This document shows positions 6,888 through 58,071 of a stretch of 64,000 nucleotides of DNA, piece by piece. The notes below the pieces were generated by a model. That model did not search any database. It was given only the letters and a program-made list of their open reading frames with translations, and was not told the DNA's origin. A program made the position numbers and the translations under genes. How positions within the stretch are numbered: position 1 is the stretch's first letter; each line of letters opens with the position of its first letter. The stretch is taken from positions 224,001 to 288,000 of IMG/VR virus record IMGVR_UViG_3300027804_002812; one strand, written 5' to 3'. The stretch is from a virus. Lineage: Duplodnaviria > Caudoviricetes.

Positions 6888-7205
6888 TTAATAATATATT
6901 GAGTAATAAACCGCCTTAATGGGATTATCAGGATATTTTTTTTCAAACCATCTTTGAATTAAATCTTCAGTCTCAGAAAAATTCCTGTTGAACAATCCAC
7001 TAATTGTTAAGAACAAATGCTGACTAACTCCCAAGTGTTGGTCAAGAAACTGAAATATCATATTTTCATTTTTATCAACAAGGTCGAAGTCCTCCTCCGT
7101 CCCAATTGTATGACTTGAATCTCTTTCGATAAGTTCCCCCACCACTAAAGTAATATACTTATCAACCAATTTTACAAGTCTATCTTCTGAAATAATATAA
7201 TCCAT
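6888..7205 (-). CDS. Leader-tagged divergent family A protein
   Basis: MDYIISEDRL leader; LGVSQ.LF..IS.LF...F.E...LI..WFE pattern. Confidence 0.75.
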   Translation of the reverse strand: MDYIISEDRLVKLVDKYITLVVGELIERDSSHTIGTEEDFDLVDKNENMIFQFLDQHLGVSQHLFLTISGLFNRNFSETEDLIQRWFEKKYPDNPIKAVYYSIYY

Positions 7206-7231
7206 AATTTATAAATACCAATAAAATAAAA

Positions 7232-7255
7232 AACCCCACCTATAAAGATGGGGTT
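7232..7255 (-). terminator. CCCCACC-family terminator
   Basis: AACCCCA...TGGGGTT with A-run (U-tract on minus strand). Confidence 0.75.
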
Positions 7256-7279
7256 ATACTATAGATTGTGTTTTCGAAA

Positions 7280-7909
7280 TTACTTACCAGTTCTTGAAGT
7301 ATATCCTGTTGACGGTCTTTCCCCTTTTGCTGTCCGTATTAAAGCCTCTCGTTCTAGTTCCTCTTTTTCACCCGGTTTCAACGGTGGATAGGGTGTATCG
7401 TCTGAGGGTTGGAAGTTCGTTACCAAATTTCTAATAGGTCTCATAATTCTAGCCCATTCAGATTCATTAGAAATATCAGAACTCAAATCCGTGTATAAAT
7501 CAACATTGTAACTACTTTTATAAGCCTTTACCAATGCACAAAATTCACTAAATGATTTCAAATTTTCAAATGCTTTATAGATTAATTCTTCATTCGTTCC
7601 AACCCCTTGTACCGCATCTCTTATCATATCAGCAAACTGATTCACACGACCCCTATCTCTGTAAGAAGAATTTTCTTTGTTACATATATCACAAAACTCC
7701 TTAACTTTTTTGTCTGAATCTCCAAATCCAGTTAGGACTTGATTCAGCATACCCATCAAGTCTTGTTCATTAACCAAAGGTTTCACATCCCCAAGTTTCG
7801 AATTTAACAATTTAGAGAAACTCTCAGTCATAACCTTCATCCCTCCTGTATGTTGTTCACGGATGGAGTTCTTCTCCTGTTCCGATAAATCGTTTAATAT
7901 ATGTTTCAT
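7280..7909 (-). CDS. Leader-tagged protein with single annexin-like repeat
   Basis: DAVQGVGTNEELIYKAF...KAYKSSYNVDLYTDLSSDIS matches the annexin GxGT-DE...Y...L..DL..(E/D) repeat. Confidence 0.7.
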   Translation of the reverse strand: MKHILNDLSEQEKNSIREQHTGGMKVMTESFSKLLNSKLGDVKPLVNEQDLMGMLNQVLTGFGDSDKKVKEFCDICNKENSSYRDRGRVNQFADMIRDAVQGVGTNEELIYKAFENLKSFSEFCALVKAYKSSYNVDLYTDLSSDISNESEWARIMRPIRNLVTNFQPSDDTPYPPLKPGEKEELEREALIRTAKGERPSTGYTSRTGK

Positions 7910-7943
7910 AATTTTTAATTTATTATAAATATCTCAAACATTC

Positions 7944-7999
7944 AAAAAAAAGGGGTTGGGGATTTCCACGACCGAAGGGAGAAAGCGGATCCGAATACA
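7944..7999. repeat. Intergenic element copy 1 (A-run, GGGGTTGGGGATT, CGACCGAAGGGAG, AAAGCGG)
   Basis: Direct repeat of copies at 12421, 12907, 13614, 14478, 14895. Confidence 0.9.
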
Positions 8000-8007
8000 A
8001 ATAAAAA

Positions 8008-8030
8008 ACCCCACCTTTATGGGGTGGGGT
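8008..8030 (-). terminator. CCCCACC-family terminator
   Basis: ACCCCACC-TTTATGG-GGTGGGGT. Confidence 0.8.
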
Positions 8031-8049
8031 AAATAACAGATTGAATTTT

Positions 8050-8676
8050 TTATGCTAAGTTAGATTGTTGTGGTTTGCCGGTACTAGCATATGTTCCTTT
8101 TGGAACTGATGATCCACCAGAACCTACAGTACAAAAATCTTTTTTCAACTTATCAGTAAAATATTTTGAATATAGAGCAATCCCCTGAGGACCCGTAAAA
8201 AGTTTGGTGTCAAATGGGATTAATTGGTCGGGTTTATCACATGAGTAGCTCAAAAAATAAACATGGTCACTATTACCAACTCGGTAGTCTGTTCCATCAC
8301 TTAGTTTAACCTCTTCGTATTTATATGCAATAACTATTTTTCCAAGTTTATCTTTAGAGTCACCTAACCCACTATACATATAATCAATTCTAATTTGTCT
8401 TTTGAACTTTCTATTTTCACGATCAGTGTAAAGATTTACCGTATTTCCCTTGAAGGATTCAAATTTTTCTTCACTAAACGCATTGACTTTGTCTTGAGGA
8501 GTATCACCAGAGATTTCAGGTATCGCTTTGGACATCGGAGGGTTAATTTTGGTTTTTGTTCCAGGGTTTTCACCAGTTTGAGTCACCGTTGTTTGAACTT
8601 GCTCACTCATAAGTCGTTTCTCTAATCTCTGATTGACTTCTTGAATGTGTCTGATTTTACTATAACTTCTATTCAT
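8050..8676 (-). CDS. Leader-tagged hypothetical protein
   Basis: Start revised to MNRSYSKIRHIQEVNQRLEKRL, shared with 10591..11283. Confidence 0.8.
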   Translation of the reverse strand: MNRSYSKIRHIQEVNQRLEKRLMSEQVQTTVTQTGENPGTKTKINPPMSKAIPEISGDTPQDKVNAFSEEKFESFKGNTVNLYTDRENRKFKRQIRIDYMYSGLGDSKDKLGKIVIAYKYEEVKLSDGTDYRVGNSDHVYFLSYSCDKPDQLIPFDTKLFTGPQGIALYSKYFTDKLKKDFCTVGSGGSSVPKGTYASTGKPQQSNLA

Positions 8677-8716
8677 AATATTGTATTTCCAATAAATATC
8701 ATTAAACACAAAAAAA

Positions 8717-8737
8717 CCCCACCTTTATGGGGTGGGG
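8717..8737 (-). terminator. CCCCACC-family terminator
   Basis: CCCCACC-TTTATGG-GGTGGGG, same as the 8008 copy. Confidence 0.8.
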
Positions 8738-8763
8738 AGATATTAACTTCAATACTTAATATA

Positions 8764-9168
8764 TTATTGAGGTTGTTGAGGTGCTTGTGCTCTTGCAATT
8801 GCTTGTGCCAAAGCATCAAGTGGTGCCAATACATTGGAAATTGCCGGTAAATATGGTTTGAACGATTCCGTATTTTGATATTGAGAAACAGCTTTTTTAA
8901 TAGTATCAGGAAGATTACCAAGTTGTCTTCTGATTTTCAAAATGTCATAAATTGCATTTATTTCATTTTGTTGTGCCTGACTTGTTGCTCGGTTTGTTTG
9001 TCTCAAATCTTGTCTTGCATCTCTTCTTGCGTCCCTTGCATCTCGAACACCTGCTCTAGCGGCATCAAGTCCTTGTTGTGCGGCTATTTGTTGACTAGTT
9101 TGTTCTTGTAATGTTTTTTTAACCAATCTTGCCAAATCAGCTTCGGTCATTCTTATAATTTTTCCCAT
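8764..9168 (-). CDS. Leader-tagged helical Q/A/R-rich protein
   Basis: MGKIIRMTEADLARLVKK..LQEQ leader; DARRDARQ low-complexity helix. Confidence 0.8.
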   Translation of the reverse strand: MGKIIRMTEADLARLVKKTLQEQTSQQIAAQQGLDAARAGVRDARDARRDARQDLRQTNRATSQAQQNEINAIYDILKIRRQLGNLPDTIKKAVSQYQNTESFKPYLPAISNVLAPLDALAQAIARAQAPQQPQ

Positions 9169-9210
9169 AATAGTTTCAGTTTACAATAAATATCACAATA
9201 CTGAAAAAAA

Positions 9211-9234
9211 ACCCCCACCTATTAAGATGGGGTT
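9211..9234 (-). terminator. CCCCACC-family terminator
   Basis: ACCCC(C)A...TGGGGTT with A-run. Confidence 0.7.
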
Positions 9235-9239
9235 ATCAA

Positions 9240-9827
9240 TTAAATTATTTCCCAATCGATTTCACCGTATTGGTCGTATTCATCATTCTCATCGTGAGTG
9301 GAACCGTCAATATCTTCATGAAGTTTTCTATAAGCCTCACAAGAACTTCTTGCCATCACAGTATGAGTCCAAGTCTGAACGCAACTCCTTGATGCTTGAA
9401 TTGTATATTCTGTTTCCTCATTCTCTTCCCATCCTTCTTCATCCTCACAATCATCATCAACAACATTCTTAACATCCTCAGGAACTCTACCAAACTTATC
9501 GATTGATTCCATCAGACTATTGCGAAACGCAATCAAATCTTTCAAAGAATAAATCTTAAAGGAATAACTTGATGCGGGAGAACCATTAACCCCAATCTCA
9601 ACATATTCCTTTGTCCCATCAGATCCGTCCCAATGATAAATGGAAAGACCCGATGCATTATCGAATTCCAAAGTTGAATCATTAACATACAAATAATTCA
9701 AGTTCCAATTATCAGGATTGGAATCCTTCATTTCCTGATACTCTTTTTCCAAGTCTCTAATCTGAGACAATGCTTTGGAATACTTCTTCTCAAAAGACTT
9801 CTTCCATTTATCTGTAAATTCTGCCAT
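9240..9827 (-). CDS. Hypothetical acidic protein (no leader)
   Basis: Start likely MAEFTD at 9827; C-terminal domain resembles 22691..22939. Confidence 0.75.
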   Translation of the reverse strand: MAEFTDKWKKSFEKKYSKALSQIRDLEKEYQEMKDSNPDNWNLNYLYVNDSTLEFDNASGLSIYHWDGSDGTKEYVEIGVNGSPASSYSFKIYSLKDLIAFRNSLMESIDKFGRVPEDVKNVVDDDCEDEEGWEENEETEYTIQASRSCVQTWTHTVMARSSCEAYRKLHEDIDGSTHDENDEYDQYGEIDWEII

Positions 9828-9870
9828 AACAAATTTTTTTATAATGATAAACAAAATTTTTTAATAAAAA

Positions 9871-9895
9871 AACCCCTCCTTTATGGGGAGGGGTT
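9871..9895 (-). terminator. CCCCTCC variant of shared terminator
   Basis: AACCCCTCC-TTTATGG-GGAGGGGTT: compensatory A-T/T-A swap versus other copies. Confidence 0.8.
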
Positions 9896-9903
9896 ATATT
9901 ACA

Positions 9904-10581
9904 CTAATTTTTATCACTTAAGGCAACCCTGAGTTTATTTACATCTTCGTCCTCTTTTTTGGCATCGAAATAGTTTTTTGTAATATCATATCCAACACTA
10001 TATCCTACACCCACTCCCAAGTATTTTAATCCTGTTTTACCCAAATTTGCTAATGATGTTTTTATAGATGAAGATAATGGTTTTGATGCAGCTTGTTGAG
10101 CCAAAGTTTTGACGTGAGTGTCCAAAGAACTCTTAACAAAATCGGTTCCTTTTTTTATACCCTCAATGACGGCCAACTCTACTGAATCAGTAATTTTATC
10201 ACCTTTAGCTATTTTTTCAGCTAAGGCAGACATTCCTTTAACTCCTAGTTGTTTGATTGCAGGAATTCTATTTATAATAGCTAAAGCACCAGGCATCAAA
10301 GAAAATATTGCCACCAAACCTGCGGTTTTCGTGTCACCTTCTTTGTAATATAATGAGGCGTCCCCCAATCCGATTCCTGCTGATAAGAATGGACCAACGA
10401 AAGGTACAAAAGAACTTGCAAAGGCCAAAAGAGGTAAAAAGAAATGAGCATCTTTCACCATTAGTTCGCCCATCTTCATAATTGCCTCTGGTTTTTGGTA
10501 GTCATAACCACCTACAGGCCCTAAACCTATTGGTTGCTCAATGAGTAAATTATATTGACGTTCGGAAATAATATATTTCAT
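9904..10581 (-). CDS. Leader-tagged protein with hydrophobic Gly/Ala-rich helices (pre-toxin-TG-like)
   Basis: MKYIISERQY..LLIEQ leader; SFVPFVGPFLSAGIGLGDASLYYKEGD..AGL..IFSLMPG. Confidence 0.65.
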   Translation of the reverse strand: MKYIISERQYNLLIEQPIGLGPVGGYDYQKPEAIMKMGELMVKDAHFFLPLLAFASSFVPFVGPFLSAGIGLGDASLYYKEGDTKTAGLVAIFSLMPGALAIINRIPAIKQLGVKGMSALAEKIAKGDKITDSVELAVIEGIKKGTDFVKSSLDTHVKTLAQQAASKPLSSSIKTSLANLGKTGLKYLGVGVGYSVGYDITKNYFDAKKEDEDVNKLRVALSDKN

Positions 10582-10590
10582 GAAAAAAAA

Positions 10591-11283
10591 TTATTTAGTA
10601 ATAATATCCGCAATCGCGTCATCAAATTTTACAATAGCATCATCAAGATTCTGTTTGAAAATTTGAAATACCCTTTTGTTTCCCGGATCTAATTGTAAAG
10701 TTAAATCAAGATCACCTAATGATTTTCTAGCCCTCTTCAAAGCCAAATAGATATCGGCTAAATCTACAGCCTGTCCCTTCGGTGTTTGGAGTTTGTCAAG
10801 ATTTCTTGCCAAGTCATCTCCAACGTATTTGAGTCTAAGGAAAGCATTAGTTGCCACATCATTACCATAGGGTAATTTTGGTTGAGGTAAGGTAGACATA
10901 ATATTTTTGAAGTCTCTTAAGGCTACAACTACTTCATCTCTTACAGGAGACAAAAATCGAGTCAAAACATCTGACATTTTAAGCGTACCAAGTTTCGACA
11001 ATAATCTTGCGGTACTACCCGATGCCCCTGCCTTCACCAAACGAGAAATCATTTCGTCCGCAGTTTCTGGTTTTGGAGGAGCAATCCATGGCTTTGACGT
11101 AGTACCCATGGCTTTTTTAACAAGGTTTTTACCTCCTTGAACTAAACCTTTAGCCAATCCTGTAATTGCGGGAACAATTTGTTCGTTAACGTCTCCTTCG
11201 GTGATTACATTCTCAACCAATCTTTTTTCTAATCTTTGGTTGGCTTCTTGAATATGTCTGATTTTACTATAACTTCTATTCAT
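10591..11283 (-). CDS. Leader-tagged hypothetical protein
   Basis: Start revised to MNRSYSKIRHIQEANQRLEKRL at 11283. Confidence 0.8.
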   Translation of the reverse strand: MNRSYSKIRHIQEANQRLEKRLVENVITEGDVNEQIVPAITGLAKGLVQGGKNLVKKAMGTTSKPWIAPPKPETADEMISRLVKAGASGSTARLLSKLGTLKMSDVLTRFLSPVRDEVVVALRDFKNIMSTLPQPKLPYGNDVATNAFLRLKYVGDDLARNLDKLQTPKGQAVDLADIYLALKRARKSLGDLDLTLQLDPGNKRVFQIFKQNLDDAIVKFDDAIADIITK

Positions 11284-11322
11284 AACTTTGTATTTCCAAT
11301 AAATATCATACGGCACAAAAAA

Positions 11323-11344
11323 ACCCCACCTAAAAAGATGGGGT
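11323..11344 (-). terminator. CCCCACC-family terminator
   Basis: ACCCCA...TGGGGT with A-run. Confidence 0.7.
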
Positions 11345-11351
11345 AGGATAA

Positions 11352-11834
11352 TCAATCTCTTGGAATTCTAATCTTCTCAACTCCACGATTTTCTTTCATA
11401 AATCTAATATAATCATCAAGCAAAGATTTTACCTCTTCAAGAACACCAGCGTCTTTGGCAACAGCGAATAGATTAAAATAACGATTATTATCGTTGTGAA
11501 TTTCCAAATAGTTATTGTAAAGATTGAAAGCAAATTTACCAGTTCCGAATTTCTCTCTAATTTCGGGATTTTTAATCATAATCATACTAACATCCGATTG
11601 TCTATCAATATATCCCTGAAAAGTAGATTCCCCCTTGTTGCCAGTCACACACCACTTGGTGTCAGATCCATATTTACAAGACGCTGTAAATGTCAATGGA
11701 ACAACTTGTAAAAAATTTTCTGTATCCGATATAACAATTCTTTCATCTTTGGAAATCTTATATTTTGTCTCATCAATCACTCGTCTAACCAATCTTGTTA
11801 AATCTGACTCGGTTAATCTTACAACTTTTTTCAT
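11352..11834 (-). CDS. Leader-tagged PcfJ-related domain protein
   Basis: MKKVVRLTESDL leader; ASCKYGSDTKWCVT motif similar to 45751..47091. Confidence 0.6.
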   Translation of the reverse strand: MKKVVRLTESDLTRLVRRVIDETKYKISKDERIVISDTENFLQVVPLTFTASCKYGSDTKWCVTGNKGESTFQGYIDRQSDVSMIMIKNPEIREKFGTGKFAFNLYNNYLEIHNDNNRYFNLFAVAKDAGVLEEVKSLLDDYIRFMKENRGVEKIRIPRD

Positions 11835-11852
11835 AATGTATTTTCAGTTCAT

Positions 11853-12398
11853 TTATTGTAAAAGTTCATCAAAATCGTCCCTCATATTTTTTTGTCTTTC
11901 GATTTCGTCCAAGAAAAATTCATAAATGTAGGCATCAACCTCACCCAAATCCAATCCTGCGCAATCTGGGAATGCATCAGAATTTACGAGTTCCTCCAAA
12001 TAATTGATAAATCTCTCTCGACAATCCTCAGTATTTTCAGGAGTTTCATTGTTGTTCCACACGTAAAGATCCCCACCTTCGTGGTTGACATAATTTCCAT
12101 TTTCATCAAATTCAACCTCGGATTGTTCAAACATGAACTCTATGTAAGATCTAAGACATTCAAGTTCATCATCCATAAAATCTTCCGAATCTCCTGTCAC
12201 CGGAACTTTAGTCATCTCAACATCAGGATTATCCAATATAAATTTTTCGTCATCAGTTAAAGATTCAATCCCCTGAGAACTAATCTTATCCAAGATAGCG
12301 TCAATCATATCTTGATTCTTCAATCTTTTTGCCTCAGTAATCATTTTCTTAACCAATGATACCAACTCAGACTCTGTTAACCTTAAAACCTTTTTCAT
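11853..12398 (-). CDS. Leader-tagged acidic protein with DUF6576-like helix
   Basis: MKKVLRLTESEL leader; IDAILDKISSQGIESLTDDEKFIL. Confidence 0.7.
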   Translation of the reverse strand: MKKVLRLTESELVSLVKKMITEAKRLKNQDMIDAILDKISSQGIESLTDDEKFILDNPDVEMTKVPVTGDSEDFMDDELECLRSYIEFMFEQSEVEFDENGNYVNHEGGDLYVWNNNETPENTEDCRERFINYLEELVNSDAFPDCAGLDLGEVDAYIYEFFLDEIERQKNMRDDFDELLQ

Positions 12399-12420
12399 AT
12401 CAATAAATATTCAACATTCC

Positions 12421-12474
12421 AAAAAAGGGGTTGGGGATTAGAACGACCGAAGGGAGAAAGCGGATCCGAATACA
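12421..12474. repeat. Intergenic element copy 2
   Basis: GGGGTTGGGGATT-AGAA-CGACCGAAGGGAG-AAAGCGGATCCGAATACAAAT, near-identical to copy 1. Confidence 0.9.
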
Positions 12475-12483
12475 AATAAAAAT

Positions 12484-12503
12484 CCCCACCTAATAAGATG
12501 GGG
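12484..12503 (-). terminator. CCCCACC-family terminator
   Basis: CCCCA...TGGGG. Confidence 0.7.
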
Positions 12504-12512
12504 TTGGATAAT

Positions 12513-12878
12513 TCATATTATGTAATTATTGACATCCCCTCCATTTTTTTCTATAGAGTTGATTACTTGATAATATTTCTCATCACTCCAATCATTTTGA
12601 CTATCTTGTACATATGGAATACAATCGGGTAAAGGATGTTTGATTGCTTCCAATCTCCACGGATTTAATTCAATTTGTTCGTCAGTTAAGTTTTCAAGTG
12701 TAATTACACTACAATCACCTTCCCAATTTGGTTCAGCAACTCCACCTTGGCCATCACCAGGTTTTGTAACAAATATAATATTGTTGTCAACAAGTTTTTG
12801 GATATCAAAAGTCATACGAGAATTATCCATTCCCATCATTATCTCGTGTATTCTTTTTATGTTCTCTTGTAAGTTCAT
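12513..12878 (-). CDS. Leader-tagged hypothetical protein
   Basis: MNLQENIKRIHEIM leader. Confidence 0.8.
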   Translation of the reverse strand: MNLQENIKRIHEIMMGMDNSRMTFDIQKLVDNNIIFVTKPGDGQGGVAEPNWEGDCSVITLENLTDEQIELNPWRLEAIKHPLPDCIPYVQDSQNDWSDEKYYQVINSIEKNGGDVNNYII

Positions 12879-12906
12879 AATGTTTTTTGTTTATAGATAA
12901 ATAGTC

Positions 12907-12945
12907 AAAAAAGGGGTTGGGGATTGGAACGACCGAAGGGAGAAG
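12907..12945. repeat. Intergenic element copy 3
   Basis: GGGGTTGGGGATT-GGAA-CGACCGAAGGGAG. Confidence 0.9.
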
Positions 12946-12950
12946 ACGGA

Positions 12951-13592
12951 TTAGGATGGATGGGCAACCCAGCTCTTTCCTTTTATTTCAGGAATCTTTC
13001 CTTGCTCATATAATTTCATCAAGGCAATAAGACGATTCCATCCTTCGTTCCATTTATACATGCCATCAACCATTTCAACAACAAAAGGTTCATTGTCAGT
13101 CAAGGTTTCAACACCATCTTTTAATGCCCTTCTCATCTGAACTTCAATACGTTCCTTACCACCTTCAACGGATTCTTTGTAAGGAATGAATTTCATTGTT
13201 TCAGGATGAATTTGGTCAGGGGTAACAGAAATTGTTTCCAAACTTATTTTGGAAAACTTATTTTTGTATCTGTCAACCCTCTCTTCCATTGTGACAAATT
13301 CATCAGGACCAACTTGCATATTTTTTGGATCCAAATCTATAAAATAATGACTAGGATTATCCTTATTTGGGGGAAGAAGAGGAAACATCATTTCTTTAAT
13401 TGCCTCCACAGGAAAATCACTTTCTCCCGCAATACAAGAAAATATTTTTGAAAGTTCGTCCCTACCATATTTCTTCCCTGGCTCATAGTCAGATGGATAA
13501 CAATCCGTTTCTTCTTCAGGTTGAATGTCCTCATCCTCTTTTAGAATCCCCATCAACTCTTTAAGTCGATATATGTTTTCGTTTAAGTTCAT
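12951..13592 (-). CDS. Leader-tagged protein with ParB/Srx-like C-terminal domain
   Basis: MNLNENIYRLKELM leader; EPFVV...GMYKWNEGWNRLIAL resembles the ParB-like (D/E)GxHR motif. Confidence 0.55.
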   Translation of the reverse strand: MNLNENIYRLKELMGILKEDEDIQPEEETDCYPSDYEPGKKYGRDELSKIFSCIAGESDFPVEAIKEMMFPLLPPNKDNPSHYFIDLDPKNMQVGPDEFVTMEERVDRYKNKFSKISLETISVTPDQIHPETMKFIPYKESVEGGKERIEVQMRRALKDGVETLTDNEPFVVEMVDGMYKWNEGWNRLIALMKLYEQGKIPEIKGKSWVAHPS

Positions 13593-13613
13593 ATTCATAA
13601 ATATCAATTATTC

Positions 13614-13655
13614 AAAAAAAGGGGTTGGGGATTGGAACGACCGAAGGGAGAAAAC
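13614..13655. repeat. Intergenic element copy 4
   Basis: GGGGTTGGGGATT-GGAA-CGACCGAAGGGAG. Confidence 0.9.
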
Positions 13656-13670
13656 GAATCGACAGGTTAA

Positions 13671-14441
13671 TTACAAATAAAGAAGTTCTTTAATACGGAT
13701 GATTTCTTCTTGCAATTTTTCATCAACCAATGATACGTTGCCTATCACTTGTGTATCTTCAGGAAAATCCAACATAAGTTCAGGAATGTGTCCATCTCCG
13801 ATGAATGCAACTCCTCCGTTCATCAATTTATTCTTTAGATTCTCTCTCCTTAATTTAGTTCCTTGTTTGGCATAATGAGATAAACTCCCCTCGGGTCCAC
13901 CAGTTTTTACATCATAATTATCCCACATCAAACTCTCACCTTTTTTCAAAAAGTTAATTATATTTTCGGGTGTTGGTTCGGCAGATAATTCTTCTTCTGA
14001 GAAATTATTATCCAATAAAGTTTCGAAATCCGCGATGTTAGAGACAGATAAACTATTTTGTGTTGCAATTCCTTGATTGGCAGCATTTACAATCACATCT
14101 TTGACAGTATCTCCTTGTACACCAAGCAATTTATTCAATGTTTCTTTGTTTGCCTCAATATTCGAAAACATTACATAACCATTATAGAACCCCAAATCCA
14201 AATCATCGAATGTTCCGTTATTTTTTGCAGATATACCCAATGAGTTTAGGAAACTTCTTTCTCTCCCTTCACCACCTCCACAGTTGTCTTCTCCACAACC
14301 TTCGAAATAAAACCCATTCCCACCCGATTTTTTGATATATTCTATTAATTCGGGATTTGAAATGGTACCAACTGAAGGAGCATTATGGTCTGAAGGTATT
14401 ACCACACCATTTCCTAGTCTTATAATTTCAGTATAACTCAT
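13671..14441 (-). CDS. Hypothetical protein, possibly TIKI/TraB/ChaN-EreA superfamily, with the leader-like motif at its C-terminus
   Basis: GVVIPSDH, FYFEG, AFIGDGH motifs; ends KLQEEIIRIKELLYL. Confidence 0.5.
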   Translation of the reverse strand: MSYTEIIRLGNGVVIPSDHNAPSVGTISNPELIEYIKKSGGNGFYFEGCGEDNCGGGEGRERSFLNSLGISAKNNGTFDDLDLGFYNGYVMFSNIEANKETLNKLLGVQGDTVKDVIVNAANQGIATQNSLSVSNIADFETLLDNNFSEEELSAEPTPENIINFLKKGESLMWDNYDVKTGGPEGSLSHYAKQGTKLRRENLKNKLMNGGVAFIGDGHIPELMLDFPEDTQVIGNVSLVDEKLQEEIIRIKELLYL

Positions 14442-14477
14442 TGTATTATATTTTTACAACAATAAATATCTATCATC

Positions 14478-14542
14478 AAAAAAAGGGGTTGGGGATTAGA
14501 ACGACCGAAGGGAGAACGGGGCGGTATTCGAATATCCCCACC
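14478..14542. repeat. Intergenic element copy 5 with half terminator
   Basis: GGGGTTGGGGATT-AGAA-CGACCGAAGGGAG...ATCCCCACC. Confidence 0.85.
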
Positions 14543-14544
14543 TA

Positions 14545-14829
14545 TTAATTAACAAACATTTTCCCCAACTCTTCACCAAGTCCCTCCACCACAATGGGTT
14601 CACCGAACTTAACCTCATGGGAGATGTACTCATAGAGAGAATGCTCATTGCTCTGAGCCTCCACCATCTTGATAAGAGCATTTTTCAAATCCTCCTTATA
14701 AGCATACATCACCAAATCGGAATCAACAGGAAATGAAAAATCCACCCCACCCTTCGGCTTCCAATAAGGAATATTGGAACCAGAATAATTCTCGTAGTAT
14801 TGAGCGGAAACTAAAATAGAAATCATCAT
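14545..14829 (-). CDS. Hypothetical protein (host-RNAP promoter class)
   Basis: 94-aa ORF preceded by a TTTG-N19-TATCTTTG promoter. Confidence 0.7.
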   Translation of the reverse strand: MMISILVSAQYYENYSGSNIPYWKPKGGVDFSFPVDSDLVMYAYKEDLKNALIKMVEAQSNEHSLYEYISHEVKFGEPIVVEGLGEELGKMFVN

Positions 14830-14855
14830 ATCGTATAGAGGTTATCGTTGAAGTA

Positions 14856-14887
14856 CAAAGATACAATAATTTTCATACCACACAAAA
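14856..14887 (-). promoter_or_regulatory. Bacteroidota sigma70-type promoter (-33 TTTG / -7 TATCTTTG)
   Basis: Minus-strand TTTG then 19 nt then TATCTTTG, upstream of 14829. Confidence 0.7.
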
Positions 14888-14894
14888 TATTTTC

Positions 14895-14945
14895 AAAAAA
14901 AAGGGCTGGGGATTTCCACGAACGAAGTGAGAACGGACGGGGCGG
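14895..14945. repeat. Intergenic element copy 6 (covarying variant)
   Basis: GGGCTGGGGATT-TCCA-CGAACGAAGTGAG; stem CC/GG changed to AC/GT. Confidence 0.85.
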
Positions 14946-14957
14946 TATACAAATAAC

Positions 14958-15530
14958 TCACTTTACCAAATGAGGATATTTCTCCATCATTTTATTCACC
15001 TTTGTAATTGTATTAATACAAACCCCCAACTCTTCAGATATCCTATTATGCCTCCATCCCAACTTTTTTAATTCAACAATTTTCTTAATCTTTACTTTTT
15101 CAAAAAATAATTCAGGACTTTCACTTGTACCAACTTTTCTACCTGTATAAATTCCAAGTTCCTTTGCCCTTTTTATTCCCTTCATTCTCATCTCCTTAGA
15201 GTCTCTATTTATCACCAATTCCACAATCCCCAATAGATACTGCTGAATATAAAACGGTATAAACTTACACCTATATCCCTTCGAAATATTTTCCTTTAAT
15301 GGAAGAAATTGAATATTTCTCAAATCTGCAATATACTCAGGGGGTACGTTCAATCTATATCCAAATGAAACAGGAAACTTGTGGTCTATCGTCATTCCCT
15401 CAGGAACAATAATTCCTTTATAATTCAAATTTTGATTAGTATACCAATCAACCTTTCTTCTATAACTATTCATTGAAATTTCCATAACTAAAAAATAAAC
15501 AATACCACAAATTTTGTAAAATTTTTCCAA
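14958..15530 (-). CDS. HNH-like endonuclease fused to serine-resolvase-type arm and HTH
   Basis: TIDHKFPVS...NIQFLPLKENISKG (HNH); RMKGIKRAKELGIYTGRK...ISEELGVCINTITKV (resolvase arm + HTH). Start may be 15473. Confidence 0.6.
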   Translation of the reverse strand: MEKFYKICGIVYFLVMEISMNSYRRKVDWYTNQNLNYKGIIVPEGMTIDHKFPVSFGYRLNVPPEYIADLRNIQFLPLKENISKGYRCKFIPFYIQQYLLGIVELVINRDSKEMRMKGIKRAKELGIYTGRKVGTSESPELFFEKVKIKKIVELKKLGWRHNRISEELGVCINTITKVNKMMEKYPHLVK

Positions 15531-15591
15531 AAATTTTTTTTAACGTTGAAGGAGTATTTCCAAATAGGGGGTCAATGTTTAGAAAATAAAA

Positions 15592-15613
15592 AACCCCTCT
15601 GTTGGGAGGGGTT
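15592..15613 (-). terminator. CCCCTC variant terminator
   Basis: AACCCCTC...GAGGGGTT with A-run. Confidence 0.75.
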
Positions 15614-15617
15614 AATA

Positions 15618-15905
15618 TTAGTTCAACTTCTTTATGTATTGACCAACACCTGTACTCATGAATCCATTTTTCCTCAACTTACTTTTAATCCTAAGACCTG
15701 TATCCTTATCAAACCCATTCCATCCAAAATAACTTGGACTTTCCACATCCACCACAACATAACCCCCAATATATTTTACAGTCACACATTCAGAGTCCAT
15801 ATACTGTTTCAAATCATCAAGAATATCAATATCTCGGACTTCTTTAATCACCCCTCGTATAATCTTAATCAATTCAGATTCCGTAAGTCTTACAATTTTT
15901 TTCAT
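15618..15905 (-). CDS. Leader-tagged hypothetical protein
   Basis: Start revised to MKKIVRLTESEL at 15905, with TATTTAT just upstream. Confidence 0.8.
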   Translation of the reverse strand: MKKIVRLTESELIKIIRGVIKEVRDIDILDDLKQYMDSECVTVKYIGGYVVVDVESPSYFGWNGFDKDTGLRIKSKLRKNGFMSTGVGQYIKKLN

Positions 15906-15998
15906 ATTAATAAATACCCAAAAAAGGTCATTTTTTTCCCAAAAATTATTTTGCATAACATAGGGGATTATCCCCCCAAAACTGACATTCTGACAGGA

Positions 15999-16060
15999 GG
16001 GAAGGGGGGATACGGGGGGTAGGGGCCCCATATGGGGGGGTGGACCCCATGCCAGAGGGG
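15999..16060 (+). other. G-quadruplex-forming motif
   Basis: Six G-runs (G3, G6, G6, G4, G7, G4) within 62 nt of an AT-rich genome. Confidence 0.6.
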
Positions 16061-16100
16061 AGGTATTAGATATATTTATTTATCCCCCACCCCCTATGAG

Positions 16101-16163
16101 TTATCCACAACTTATCAATGTGGATAACTTGTGGAGGTAAACAGAATAATATATTGTGGATAA
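16101..16163. promoter_or_regulatory. DnaA-box cluster 1 (three perfect boxes)
   Basis: TTATCCACA 16101-16109; TGTGGATAA 16119-16127 and 16155-16163. Confidence 0.8.
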
Positions 16164-16352
16164 GTGGTATGACAGGCAGTCAGGAATAAAAACCACGTAG
16201 GGGTAACCAAAGAATGTTCTGTATACACAGTACAATTATATCTTGGAATCGTACGCACTACTTAACATAATCTAGATTATATAACATACTTCTATAACTC
16301 CCCCAACCTTTTATTGTATTATGTGGGGAATGTTTAGACACACCTTAAAAGT

Positions 16353-16787
16353 TTAGATAGTCATGAAAGGTTGTTGACCTTCCTTACGATTGATGTGCCA
16401 TGTCCCCACTTCAAGATTACGTCCCCTAATCTTAAACTCATCAGGAATGGCGGGGTTCTCAGTAACATCTTTGATTACAGACCTTATCCCATCACGGACT
16501 GACTTGTACTGTTCATACTCCATATCGTTAATAAGGTTGGGGTAAGACCAATCCAAATACTTCCCCTCATCAATCAACTCCTGAATCCATTCCTTCGTCT
16601 CAAAACCATAAGCCTCAGAAAACTCAGTGGGGTCGAACTCAAAGTTCAAAAAAATTGTTGTATAGAGATCCAAGTCCTCCTGTCTGACAAACACATCCTT
16701 AATCCATGGGTACTTCTTTTTTAATGCTCTCTTAATCAACTTGAAAACATATACGTTATAAATTTGTTCAGGTGTAATCTTCCCCAT
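16353..16787 (-). CDS. Hypothetical protein
   Basis: 144-aa ORF with TATTTAT upstream. Confidence 0.75.
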   Translation of the reverse strand: MGKITPEQIYNVYVFKLIKRALKKKYPWIKDVFVRQEDLDLYTTIFLNFEFDPTEFSEAYGFETKEWIQELIDEGKYLDWSYPNLINDMEYEQYKSVRDGIRSVIKDVTENPAIPDEFKIRGRNLEVGTWHINRKEGQQPFMTI

Positions 16788-16801
16788 GGTAATACTGTTT
16801 A

Positions 16802-17038
16802 TTATAAATACTCAGTCTTTATCATCTTTTGACATACCTCCACAATATCCTTGGGGAATATCTCATAGTCAGACACTTCGTACAACTTCTCAATCTTGGC
16901 ATCAACACAAACCCAAGCATCCATACTTAATGGTTTATTCGTAAACCCCCTCTTCGCTTTCTCAAAATACAGAGAACCAACCTCTTCCTCTTTGAAGGAG
17001 ATAATAAACCGTATTCTCCCCTCCTCTATCTTGTCCAT
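16802..17038 (-). CDS. Hypothetical protein
   Basis: Start revised to MDKIEEG at 17038 (TATTTATA at 17041-17048); the longer frame runs through DnaA boxes. Confidence 0.65.
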   Translation of the reverse strand: MDKIEEGRIRFIISFKEEEVGSLYFEKAKRGFTNKPLSMDAWVCVDAKIEKLYEVSDYEIFPKDIVEVCQKMIKTEYL

Positions 17039-17058
17039 CTTATAAATAAAATCTGTCA

Positions 17059-17162
17059 TGTGGATAAGTATACATTCGGAACATATAAAAATAAAGTTAT
17101 CCACACACTGACATTATGTCTGGCGGGGTCGTCATGTGGAAAACTTTTTCCATTGTGGATAA
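17059..17162. promoter_or_regulatory. DnaA-box cluster 2 (three perfect boxes, one 1-mismatch)
   Basis: TGTGGATAA 17059-17067 and 17154-17162; TTATCCACA 17097-17105; TGTGGAAAA 17135-17143. Confidence 0.8.
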
Positions 17163-17247
17163 CTATTATGACCAAAAAACTTGATTTTGTCAAAATGTCA
17201 GGGGAGCGTTACATGGGGGATAATCCCTTTGGGGATATTCGGTTCCC

Positions 17248-17271
17248 CCACTCTCTACCACATTCCCCCAC
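17248..17271 (-). promoter_or_regulatory. GTGG x3 array with 10-bp period (MraZ-box-like)
   Basis: CCAC at 17248, 17258, 17268; inverted partner GTGG at 17509 and 17519. Confidence 0.5.
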
Positions 17272-17405
17272 CATGAGTAGTGAATTTATGGCTGGTTATA
17301 GTGTAATGACCACTTTTTCCCCCCTGACGATAGCAGGAAGACCATTTTTTTACTATGTCTGTTTTCTAGCAAAAAAAGGATTAGTAAGTGAGACCCCGCG
17401 TGTAA

Positions 17406-17418
17406 CGAACGTAGTGAG
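17406..17418 (+). repeat. Isolated mini-hairpin core of the repeat element
   Basis: CGA-AC-GTA-GT-GAG. Confidence 0.6.
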
Positions 17419-17858
17419 TGTTTTAATCCCCCTTCAACGAATCACCATGGTTATATAGACCATATGAGATGACCATTACATTCCCCTTCAAGGGACATAT
17501 CGTGGATGGTGGTAAGAAGTGGGAGTAAGTATATGACATGGTATTATGAACCGAAGGTATTATCTTATATGTCATCTCACTATAGAACTGTATGTGAAAT
17601 AATATATGTTAATTCGGAAATTCCCCGAATGGGGATGGTTTATTTAACATCTCACCTTCACACTATACACCATCTCGTTTGATGTCCCCTCATTTAGCGG
17701 GGATTAGTTTGGCGGGGATTATACAACAAGAGAGAGAATAAGGGACAATCCACGGAACAAAGTGTAGTGGATAATGTCTGTCCCGAAATGAACGAACTTG
17801 GTGGATAATCATCACAATTATTTAATATGGTGTGAGTTTCTTTATTCTATTTATTGCT

Positions 17859-18557
17859 ATGATAAAAGACTTACTAACAATCGTTATACCCTGTAAGAAT
17901 GAAATGGAGTTAATTGATTTGACTCTGAGTTTAATTAACAAACAAGAGGGCATATCAGGTACAAGAGTTATTATTGCTGATTCCTCTGATGATTCGACAA
18001 GGGACATTATATTATCAGGAGGACATGATAATTTGAACATTACTATTATTGATGGTGGTTATCCGAGCGTAGCAAGAAACAAGGGTTCTGAGTTATGTAC
18101 AACCCCCTATATATTATTCTTGGATGCTGATATATTCTTGATTGATAATACCACCATTAAGAAGTGTATGGATATTATACAGAAACAGTCATTGGAGTTA
18201 TTAACCTGTAAGTTTAGATGTGAAGGCAGGTATTCATTTGTCTTCCCCATCTTTGAATTCTTTAGAGATTTATCTGTTAGATATTCCCCATGTGCGATTG
18301 GTGGTTTTATGTTGTTTGAATATGATACCTTTATTAGAGTTGGAGGATTTGATGATGAAGATAAGTTTGCTGAGGATTTTCATCTTAGTAGTAAAATCTC
18401 CCCTAAGTTATTTAAGGTGGTGAATAAGAAGATATATACTACGGATAGAAGATTTAAGAAGAAAGGATTATTTTATATGGTTAAAGTTGCCATTCTATCC
18501 ATAATGAATAAGAACAACCCCGCGTTTTTTAAGTATGACCACAACTACTGGCTATAA
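17859..18557 (+). CDS. Glycosyltransferase family 2
   Basis: TIVIPCKNE, IIADSSDD, ARNKG, LFLDAD, GGFD...AED; start revised to 17859 (TATTTAT at 17848). Confidence 0.9.
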   Translation: MIKDLLTIVIPCKNEMELIDLTLSLINKQEGISGTRVIIADSSDDSTRDIILSGGHDNLNITIIDGGYPSVARNKGSELCTTPYILFLDADIFLIDNTTIKKCMDIIQKQSLELLTCKFRCEGRYSFVFPIFEFFRDLSVRYSPCAIGGFMLFEYDTFIRVGGFDDEDKFAEDFHLSSKISPKLFKVVNKKIYTTDRRFKKKGLFYMVKVAILSIMNKNNPAFFKYDHNYWL

Positions 18558-19639: not shown

Positions 19640-19702
19640 CTGTCATTTGCCGGGATTGATTATCCCCCAACCCCCTTTTTTATTTTAATGATATTTATTA
19701 CT

Positions 19703-57273: not shown

Positions 57274-58071
57274 TTACAGATAGTCGAAGAGAATACCCGT
57301 TTCGTTTCGTAACTTTCTCAAAGCTTTTTCTTTGATTTGTCTAACCCTTTCTTTGGTCAAATCGAAGTCAGTTCCAATGTCCTCAAGGGTTCTTGTTGAA
57401 CCTGATAACCCAAAATAATCTTCAATAATCACCTTTTCTCTCTCGTCTAAGACATCCAACATATTCAAAAGTTTTTCTTTCAAAGTGTCTTCAGTGGATA
57501 AATTTTTGTCAGCCAAATCAGCGTTTGGATTAACCAAAATGTCCAATAATGTATCACCTTCTTCATTAAGTGGATTATCCAAGTTAATGGTATAAGGTAG
57601 ATTCACCATCTTTTCGGGTAATTCAACACCAGCCTTTTCAAGTTCTTTCTTAGCCTTATGAAGTTCTTGGACAACATTGACAGGAAGACGAATGGTTCTC
57701 GCGTTCTCATTCAAAGATTGCAATATGGATTGTCTAACCCACCATACAGCATAAGAAATGAATCTTAATCTTTTAGTCCAATCAAAGTTTTCGATCGCCT
57801 TCATCAATCCAAGATTACCTTCAGCAATCAAATCACATAAATCCAAACCTTGATTCTGATATTGTTTGGACACGGTGATAACGAAACGCAAGTTACCTTC
57901 CAATAATTCTTTTTGGATTTCTTTCTTCTCTTCTTCAGTAATAAACCCTGATAACATTCTTTCAGCAAGTTCACGTTCCCTCTCAGGAGTCATGACCTTA
58001 ATTTTTCGAATGTCTTTCAGATAATGACTGATTTCTTCTTGATTAATTGGAATTGAGGATTTTTCTTTCAT
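57274..58071 (-). CDS. rpoD: RNA polymerase sigma-70 factor, Bacteroidota RpoD/SigA-like
   Basis: NLRFVITVSKQYQNQG..DLIAEGNLGL...FISYAVWWVRQSI; region 4 TLEDIG...LTKERVRQIKEKALRKL; no region 1.1. Confidence 0.9.
   Translation of the reverse strand: MKEKSSIPINQEEISHYLKDIRKIKVMTPERERELAERMLSGFITEEEKKEIQKELLEGNLRFVITVSKQYQNQGLDLCDLIAEGNLGLMKAIENFDWTKRLRFISYAVWWVRQSILQSLNENARTIRLPVNVVQELHKAKKELEKAGVELPEKMVNLPYTINLDNPLNEEGDTLLDILVNPNADLADKNLSTEDTLKEKLLNMLDVLDEREKVIIEDYFGLSGSTRTLEDIGTDFDLTKERVRQIKEKALRKLRNETGILFDYL

Follow-up and report, generated by a model that had tools for sequence, protein, structure and literature searches.

Composite cassettes that join a terminator to a promoter, known as promoter-early stem-loop (PeSL) elements, have been described in T4-type phages, where genes are shuffled around them and the stop part is a plain GC hairpin abutting a U-run (Arbiol et al. 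2010, PMC2839356; Comeau et al. 2014, PMC4122927). In the promoters of the phage N4 virion RNA polymerase, a DNA hairpin extends from -17 to -5; its triloop has a central purine and a C:G closing pair, and about four bases that are not read separate the hairpin from +1 (PMC4496689). Here we analyze a 64,000-nucleotide stretch of DNA, hereafter the window, that corresponds to bases 224,001-288,000 of one 326,291-bp virus record (IMGVR_UViG_3300027804_002812), and within it an intergenic repeat of about 40 bases that contains a 13-nt mini-hairpin and occurs as six near-identical copies plus one diverged seventh, all within a stretch of about 10 kb. The reading that we favor, tentatively, is that this element may be an atypical, factor-recognized stop and crossover module of PeSL-like cassettes, its user being a clade of freshwater T4-like jumbo phages. 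The novelty relative to the known cassettes, with their ordinary stop hairpin, lies in the different, highly conserved and structurally constrained module that a whole clade of uncultured freshwater jumbo phages has in the terminator slot.

As in the PeSL-bearing phages, the genome is T4-type (its Gp23 capsid gene was matched with an E value of 1e-62) and carries, between small variable open reading frames (ORFs), a short conserved intergenic unit made of a putative stop part with a U-run, a promoter and a start codon at fixed spacing; further, insertions, deletions and replacements between relatives break at this unit. The differences are that the stop part here has, in place of the plain PeSL hairpin, a 13-nt hairpin in which two mismatches are invariant, followed by a spacer and by a C-tract that is left unpaired in most predicted folds (see below), that the promoter is mostly TATTTAT as opposed to a sigma-70 early promoter, and that just 2-7 clustered copies are found per genome.

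The plus-strand intergenic copies listed in the original prediction, an earlier annotation made from the letters of this stretch, were recovered by a motif scan against shuffled sequences: CGANNGNANNGAG has 10 matches in the window vs. 0.65 expected, and 7 of the 10 are on the plus strand (positions 7969, 12444, 12930, 13638, 14502, 14919 and 17406). Four nucleotides to the left of copies 1-5 stands an exact GGGGTTGGGGATT, replaced in copy 6 by AGGGCTGGGGATT (two changes), and a run of A6-8 precedes the hairpin element copies on this strand. The genes around all copies are encoded on the minus strand and the copies are co-oriented with them; therefore, the plus strand on which the motif was originally read is the template strand. 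On the coding strand, the window copies consist of CTC-NN-TTC-N'N'-TCG, 4 variable bases, AATCCCC-AA-CCCC and T6-8, with TATTTAT 9-20 nt further on and then a start codon, and the consensus for the whole family is CTC-NN-TYC-N'N'-TCG, a 4-6 nt spacer, AATCCCC-NN-CCCC and T5-9; a T-run (T4-10) was present in all surveyed copies. The AATCCCC and CCCC blocks and the 13-nt hairpin are under strong sequence and structure constraint, and a long form of the element has C-rich tracts on both sides of the hairpin. A scan of the genome and its relatives, which the original prediction had called for, confined the full element to the 10-kb stretch within the whole 326,291-bp genome and yielded about 180 further distinct copies from pattern scans of viral and metagenome contigs, all of them in large phage-like contigs. 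The copies in the window are as follows.

7944-7981, minus strand: copy 1, with T8 at 7944-7951, C-tract block at 7952-7964, spacer at 7965-7968 and hairpin at 7969-7981 (coding strand CTC-CC-TTC-GG-TCG)
12421-12456, minus strand: copy 2, with the same anatomy as copy 1; hairpin at 12444-12456
12907-12942, minus strand: copy 3; hairpin at 12930-12942
13614-13650, minus strand: copy 4; hairpin at 13638-13650
14478-14514, minus strand: copy 5; hairpin at 14502-14514, with an upstream GGTGGGGAT able to pair with the C-tract
14894-14931, minus strand: copy 6, the AC/GT stem variant; hairpin at 14919-14931, followed by a Bacteroidota sigma-A-type promoter and not by TATTTAT
17371-17432, minus strand: copy 7, diverged; hairpin at 17406-17418 (CTC-AC-TAC-GT-TCG), 23-nt spacer, AATCC and T7

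Copy 7 thus has the 13-mer and lacks the G-tract block; it is located in a divergent control region with DnaA boxes and is conserved in the relative G002.

For 80 of 118 elements, 16-18 nt separate the start of the T-run from the downstream TATTTAT, and the ordinary terminators of this genome show a T-run start 15-18 nt before the same motif in 8 out of 10 cases. The element and plain terminators also replace each other between relatives. That is, the plain terminator upstream of the gene at 9240-9854 has a full element at its orthologous site in G004, with the homology between the two genomes resuming exactly at the T-run; and at genome positions 223,972-223,988, just left of the window, this genome has a plain terminator, a hairpin-less C-tract/T-run copy, where the metagenome contig L301 has the full element, with the homology resuming at the C-tract. 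Further, cassette order is unlike among the genomes G000, G002 and G004, and cassette gain, loss and reordering between relatives have their breakpoints at the element. Based on this spacing, the terminator replacement and the cassette breakpoints, the element takes the place of the terminator in PeSL-like cassettes and probably represents a crossover point. Copies 3-6 have no ordinary terminator just upstream, and for 83% of the copies no other terminator is found within 100 nt upstream (17% have one). The ordinary terminators relevant here are as follows.

8008-8030, minus strand: ordinary intrinsic terminator upstream of copy 1
12484-12503, minus strand: ordinary intrinsic terminator upstream of copy 2
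9871-9895, minus strand: plain terminator upstream of the gene at 9240-9854, at the site that holds a full element in G004

All 183 copies are oriented with their gene arrays; hence, the strand bias that was proposed as a check of the original prediction is present, but it tracks transcription and cassette orientation. A variant of the stop module without the 13-nt hairpin was also noted at about 19640-19685 on the plus strand (GGGAT, a 5-nt loop, ATCCC, then CCAACCCCC, T6 and TATTTAT), and relatives (L007) carry another insert, ATGCCGGMAT, in the same frame.

Under the favored reading, the element would be the "stop" half of a stop-start intergenic cassette. Read-through from the upstream gene would be ended or insulated via a non-canonical, factor-dependent route that would combine a C-rich, G-poor tract similar to a Rho-utilization site, a U-run, and the hairpin as a specific binding determinant, while the near-identity between copies would provide the crossover point for cassette exchange. 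Since the coding strand is rich in C and poor in G (a 50-nt stretch at copy 3 has 24 C vs. 4 G, about 4 standard deviations above the genome mean, although other coding regions of this genome reach similar values), Rho-type, factor-dependent termination is a reasonable mechanism, in line with the Rho-loading role that the original prediction had named as an alternative. The lambda terminator tR1, which is Rho-dependent and organized as rutA-boxB-rutB, offers a parallel in that it also comprises C-rich, G-poor untranslated RNA with a small hairpin within it and a pause-prone U-rich stretch after it. However, our element has a much shorter C-rich part (about 40-55 nt) with a sequence that diverged phages have in common, and the role of Rho is putative.

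Several observations weigh against a stop module, or at least against a conventional one. The C-tract beside the U-run is paired in 32% of the minimum-energy folds vs. 18% of the shuffled controls; therefore, most copies are not canonical intrinsic terminators, in which a GC-rich RNA hairpin abuts the U-run. A complementary 5' arm is significant in just 21 of 47 copies, and the corresponding long-range stem, GGGGAT:ATCCCC, which is uncompensated in copy 7 of G002, was rejected as a general feature. The hairpin in the coding-strand RNA would contain U.C/C.U mismatches, and its predicted energy is 0. Among diverged phages, the core shows conservation far beyond what is usual for terminators, and the clustering of the 2-7 copies per genome beside one control region is unlike a general-purpose terminator. 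Finally, 5 of the 183 copies have an opposite-strand gene upstream and hence no gene to terminate; an inverted nuclease-like gene is located upstream of such exceptional copies in L165, L360 and L137, and accounts for the exception in L165 and L360. The few clustered copies and the strong core conservation, in an element that is not a canonical terminator, suggest that a specific reader protein, encoded by the host or the phage, is likely. The identity of this reader would tell how these phages punctuate or time the expression of their variable gene arrays.

The nuclease-like genes bring up the alternative that recombination is itself the selected function, with the element being a crossover or target site either for homologous exchange (as in PeSL mini-circles) or for a structure-specific nuclease. 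The rearrangement breakpoints at the element and the occurrence of copies in tandem, convergent and divergent contexts are consistent with this scenario, and so is the inverted GIY-YIG-like gene that is flanked by two direct-repeat elements in L360 and adjoins the element in L165. Specifically, the L360 gene (600-1082, plus strand; 160 aa) gives a weak T5orf172/GIY-YIG-type match (E 0.003), with a homolog immediately upstream of the element in L165 and another one in L137; it may be homing-endonuclease-like, with the element as its landing site. On the other hand, the tight spacing to the promoter points to an expression role, homology alone leaves the covariation of the 2-bp stem (below) unexplained, and no tyrosine integrase, Y1 transposase or T5orf172 gene was found in this genome, so that the cognate enzyme that accompanies integron attC sites or the repetitive extragenic palindromes of REP-RAYT systems is missing. 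The attC sites are similar to our element in that structured repeats bound single-gene cassettes and compensatory changes preserve the structure, whereas the element has a far shorter stem, a highly conserved sequence and a fixed position relative to promoters. Therefore, we consider recombination as the selected function to be unlikely.

As far as can be judged from sequence comparison, the mini-hairpin is real because its inner pairs are nearly always Watson-Crick while showing five pair combinations at the two inner base pairs. In an alignment of 46 distinct copies (A1), the outer pair is invariably C:G and positions 2:12 and 3:11 are never Watson-Crick (46/46 rows), whereas pair 4:10 is CG in 25 copies, AU in 13 and GC in 8, and pair 5:9 is CG in 38 and UA in 8, with none unpaired at either position. 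This inner-pair covariation was equalled in 0 of 500 shuffles, with slid controls near zero, even though the stem changes represent only a handful of independent events. In two surveys performed without selection for pairing, both inner pairs were Watson-Crick in 55/57 and 100/102 copies. The rarer types include AT/AT and CT/AG; in addition, one relative's copy has A:T pairs at both mismatch positions, and relatives with a perfect stem occur, e.g., CGACC-TTC-GGTCG. Hence, the covarying two-pair stem of the original prediction holds across the family. In one subfamily (L310, L316, L321, L343, L371 and L054), a second module just downstream of the T-run has a perfect 5-6-bp stem with a TTC loop (CCGAC-TTC-GTCGG or CGACC-TTC-GGTCG), and small TTC/GAA-loop hairpins therefore recur as building blocks.

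On the coding strand, the two invariant mismatches read T.C/C.T, whereas the template strand has G.A/A.G at these positions; by established thermodynamics, only the G.A/A.G pairs stabilize a helix. Because such pairs arise only there, the template (plus) strand is favored as the functional hairpin strand, in agreement with the strand originally chosen for the fold. The GNA triloop proposed along with it describes most copies, the template-strand loops being mostly GAA, GGA or GTA, but not those with ATA and AAA loops. The high stability that was also proposed was not supported, as nearest-neighbor folding predicts essentially no stable hairpin on either strand, whether as DNA or as RNA. Consensus folding of 25 long-form copies with RNAalifold returned no structure for the coding strand and the mini-hairpin alone for the other strand. 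Hirao and colleagues reportedly described extraordinarily stable DNA mini-hairpins, d(GCGAAGC), in which C-GNA-G triloops form with sheared G.A pairs. The plus-strand copies resemble these in being mostly C-GAA-G, C-GGA-G or C-GTA-G with tandem G.A/A.G flanks, whereas the GT/AC subfamily has a T:A closing pair, with ATA or AAA loops in about half of its members, and the fold is a predicted one here.

Accepting the template strand, it is conceivable, albeit on the unlikely side, that the mini-hairpin on the template DNA strand is read as a single-stranded DNA structure by an unrecognized phage protein, perhaps a polymerase, a primase, or a protein that loads a clamp or a factor. If true, a T4-like jumbo phage would have structure-specific initiation or control sites of the N4 kind beside its DnaA-box region, and structure-specific DNA recognition would be extended beyond N4-like phages. 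The original prediction had taken the element for a single-stranded DNA signal of this sort; the hairpin and the preference for the template strand stand, whereas the terminator slot, and with it the exchangeability of the element with plain terminators, had been overlooked.

One specific form of such a signal, a single-strand initiation (ssi) or primosome-assembly site for lagging-strand priming beside an origin, appears very improbable. On the plus strand, a stable single-stranded DNA mini-hairpin is plausible, and DnaA-box clusters are close to the copies; however, forks moving leftward from the DnaA-box region would make the plus strand the leading-strand template, i.e., the wrong strand, and both the orientation with the gene arrays in 183/183 copies and the fixed position relative to promoters argue against a priming site. 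The resemblance to the ColE1/pBR322 priming site that had been proposed for copies 1 and 2 could not be reproduced: there is no detectable similarity to ColE1-type origins, and a search of 72,556 plasmids gave 12 weak matches, none of them to a ColE1-type plasmid. The best rhizobial match lacks the hairpin and was dismissed as chance.

Another form would be a promoter, or another initiation site, made by a DNA hairpin on the template strand as for the N4 virion RNA polymerase (vRNAP); the 4-nt spacer would then serve as a ruler that places the transcription start at the first A of AATCCCC. Consistent with this hypothesis, when the spacer has its dominant length of 4 nt, the predicted +1 falls exactly on the first base of the AATCCCC block, and the stabilizing G.A pairs are on the template strand. 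Most copies have on that strand a 3-nt, purine-centered loop with a 5' G, a 3' A and C:G closing, and, as in N4, some stem positions are conserved while others need only pair, with an unread spacer leading to a conserved block at the predicted start (PMC4496689). Moreover, the small number of copies cluster in one orientation next to a divergent control region, and copy 7 and the L165 copy are within divergent regions. The stem, however, has only 3 Watson-Crick pairs, plus 2 G.A pairs, compared to 5-7 Watson-Crick pairs in N4, which is too few for extrusion from duplex DNA; conservation extends 20 nt past the predicted +1; plain terminators replace the element at orthologous sites; and 5 of the 183 copies are at convergent junctions, where the downstream gene is on the opposite strand and there is no co-oriented gene to promote. 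The available transcript data, i.e., assembled contigs from four metatranscriptomes, point both ways. Two contigs span the C-tract and the T-run ahead of TATTTAT, and the upstream gene is not covered in those runs, but the contigs that end close to the hairpin do so some 26-30 nt inside the repeat, where k=31 assembly breaks are expected, and the contigs for the genes behind copies 1 and 2 end short of the element.

A polymerase that would read such promoters should be encoded by the phage itself, yet no T7/N4-type or multisubunit RNA polymerase, and no virion RNA polymerase gene, was recognized in the genome. A PF00940 search of the genome gave no match, which is a weak negative given that control genomes were also unmatched, and no match to the RNA polymerase beta and beta' subunits was obtained either; the giant ORFs have no family or PDB matches, although a very divergent polymerase, e.g., one hidden in the ORFs of 2569, 1709 and 1581 residues, could escape such searches. 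The sole DFDID motif, considered as a polymerase signature, is located in an aminotransferase. Overall, an N4-type promoter seems an improbable explanation for the element.

It is also doubtful, and perhaps slightly more so, that the element works within the coding-strand transcript as a regulatory RNA site, where a phage protein would bind the hairpin in a boxB-like manner and control read-through or processing. Hairpins that are bound by proteins typically have invariant unpaired bases next to a covarying stem, as is the case here, the C-rich tracts that flank the hairpin in the long form recall rutA-boxB-rutB of lambda tR1, and in L256 the module is situated in the loop of a long stem with a T.G wobble, which fits the coding sense only. 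Against these stand the tandem U.C/C.U mismatches with their predicted energy of 0, the lack of consensus RNA structure past the mini-hairpin, the lack of an Rfam match (none at E up to 10 for positions 7000-18500), and the fact that no candidate binding protein was identified. A hammerhead core was rejected by eye: the plus strand has GA-stem-GA but is without CUGA and has G at the invariant A14.

Returning to the favored stop and crossover module, its distribution is that of a phage-specific element. Related genomes have 2-3 copies each, inside 1.5-2.6 kb and on a single strand, and in G002 and G004, as in this genome, the cluster is close to the DnaA-box control region, with 1-4 kb between it and the ortholog of that region. 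The control region itself (window 15963-17830), which is divergent and rich in DnaA boxes, shares 79-90% identity with its orthologs (L420:16762-18444 and L421:11828-14177); it adjoins the element cluster in all three genomes, while the intervening cassettes differ. Among 185,579 prokaryote genomes (one per species), 101 partial matches were found vs. about 70 expected by chance (our estimate) and the full element in none; therefore, the element appears to be phage-specific. Two cultured relatives, Flavobacterium phage immuto and the huge phage LR756508, are without it. In practical terms, the element can be used in metagenomes to recognize this phage clade and the boundaries of cassettes. Unrelated repeats in cellular genomes (genome contig loci L197-L297) do show CTC-N-C-TTC-G-N'-TCG followed by NNNN-AATCCC, with pair 4:10 being Watson-Crick in 55 of 101 matches vs. 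25% expected; examples include a repeat of about 117 bp in an Oribacterium metagenome-assembled genome (MAG) and long hairpins in several haloarchaea (Halobacteriales).

The start half of the cassettes is mostly TATTTAT, which is found upstream of about 100 of the 402 predicted genes with a 9-fold enrichment in the sense orientation and, on this pattern, is probably the main promoter class of the phage. It is mostly 4-5 or 14-20 nt from the ATG, and therefore many transcripts would be leaderless or nearly so. Most copies of the element precede TATTTAT, and 11 of 102 precede a host-type promoter instead, TTTG-N19-21-TAnnTTTG, which we take to be the primary-sigma consensus of Bacteroidota. Consequently, the element is not tied to a single promoter type, and Bacteroidota are indicated as the host phylum. 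The host is thus probably a member of the Bacteroidota; the nearest cultured relatives by capsid are Flavobacterium phages (45% identity), and the phage is present in many freshwater metagenomes. The possibility that the C-tract is a -35 element was ruled out, as G-rich terminator arms are found at the same position before other TATTTAT promoters. The promoters behind the copies are as follows.

7925-7931, minus strand: TATTTAT promoter motif downstream of copy 1
12403-12409, 12897-12903, 13597-13603 and 14462-14468, minus strand: TATTTAT behind copies 2, 3, 4 and 5, respectively
14856-14887, minus strand: host-type promoter behind copy 6 (TTTG, N19, TATCTTTG)

A further TATTTAT example is at 19692-19698. 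The genome encodes a sigma-70-family protein of 265 aa (window 57274-58071, minus strand) with regions 1.2, 2 and 4, and a second, weak sigma region-2 match is at genome positions 126847-127011. The array that holds the element consists of small minus-strand ORFs, mostly without family matches, and the genes behind the element (e.g., at window 12398, L017, L033 and L360) often share an N-terminal motif, MK-x-I-I-x-T-E or of the MNLQE type. The promoter, the leader and the first codons are repeated at several sites of the genome (233.1, 235.8 and 153.5 kb). Finally, the gene behind copy 1 (window 7280-7909, minus strand) has an annexin-repeat match just above the Pfam cut-off, and this same region is the one most consistently found across the four metatranscriptomes.

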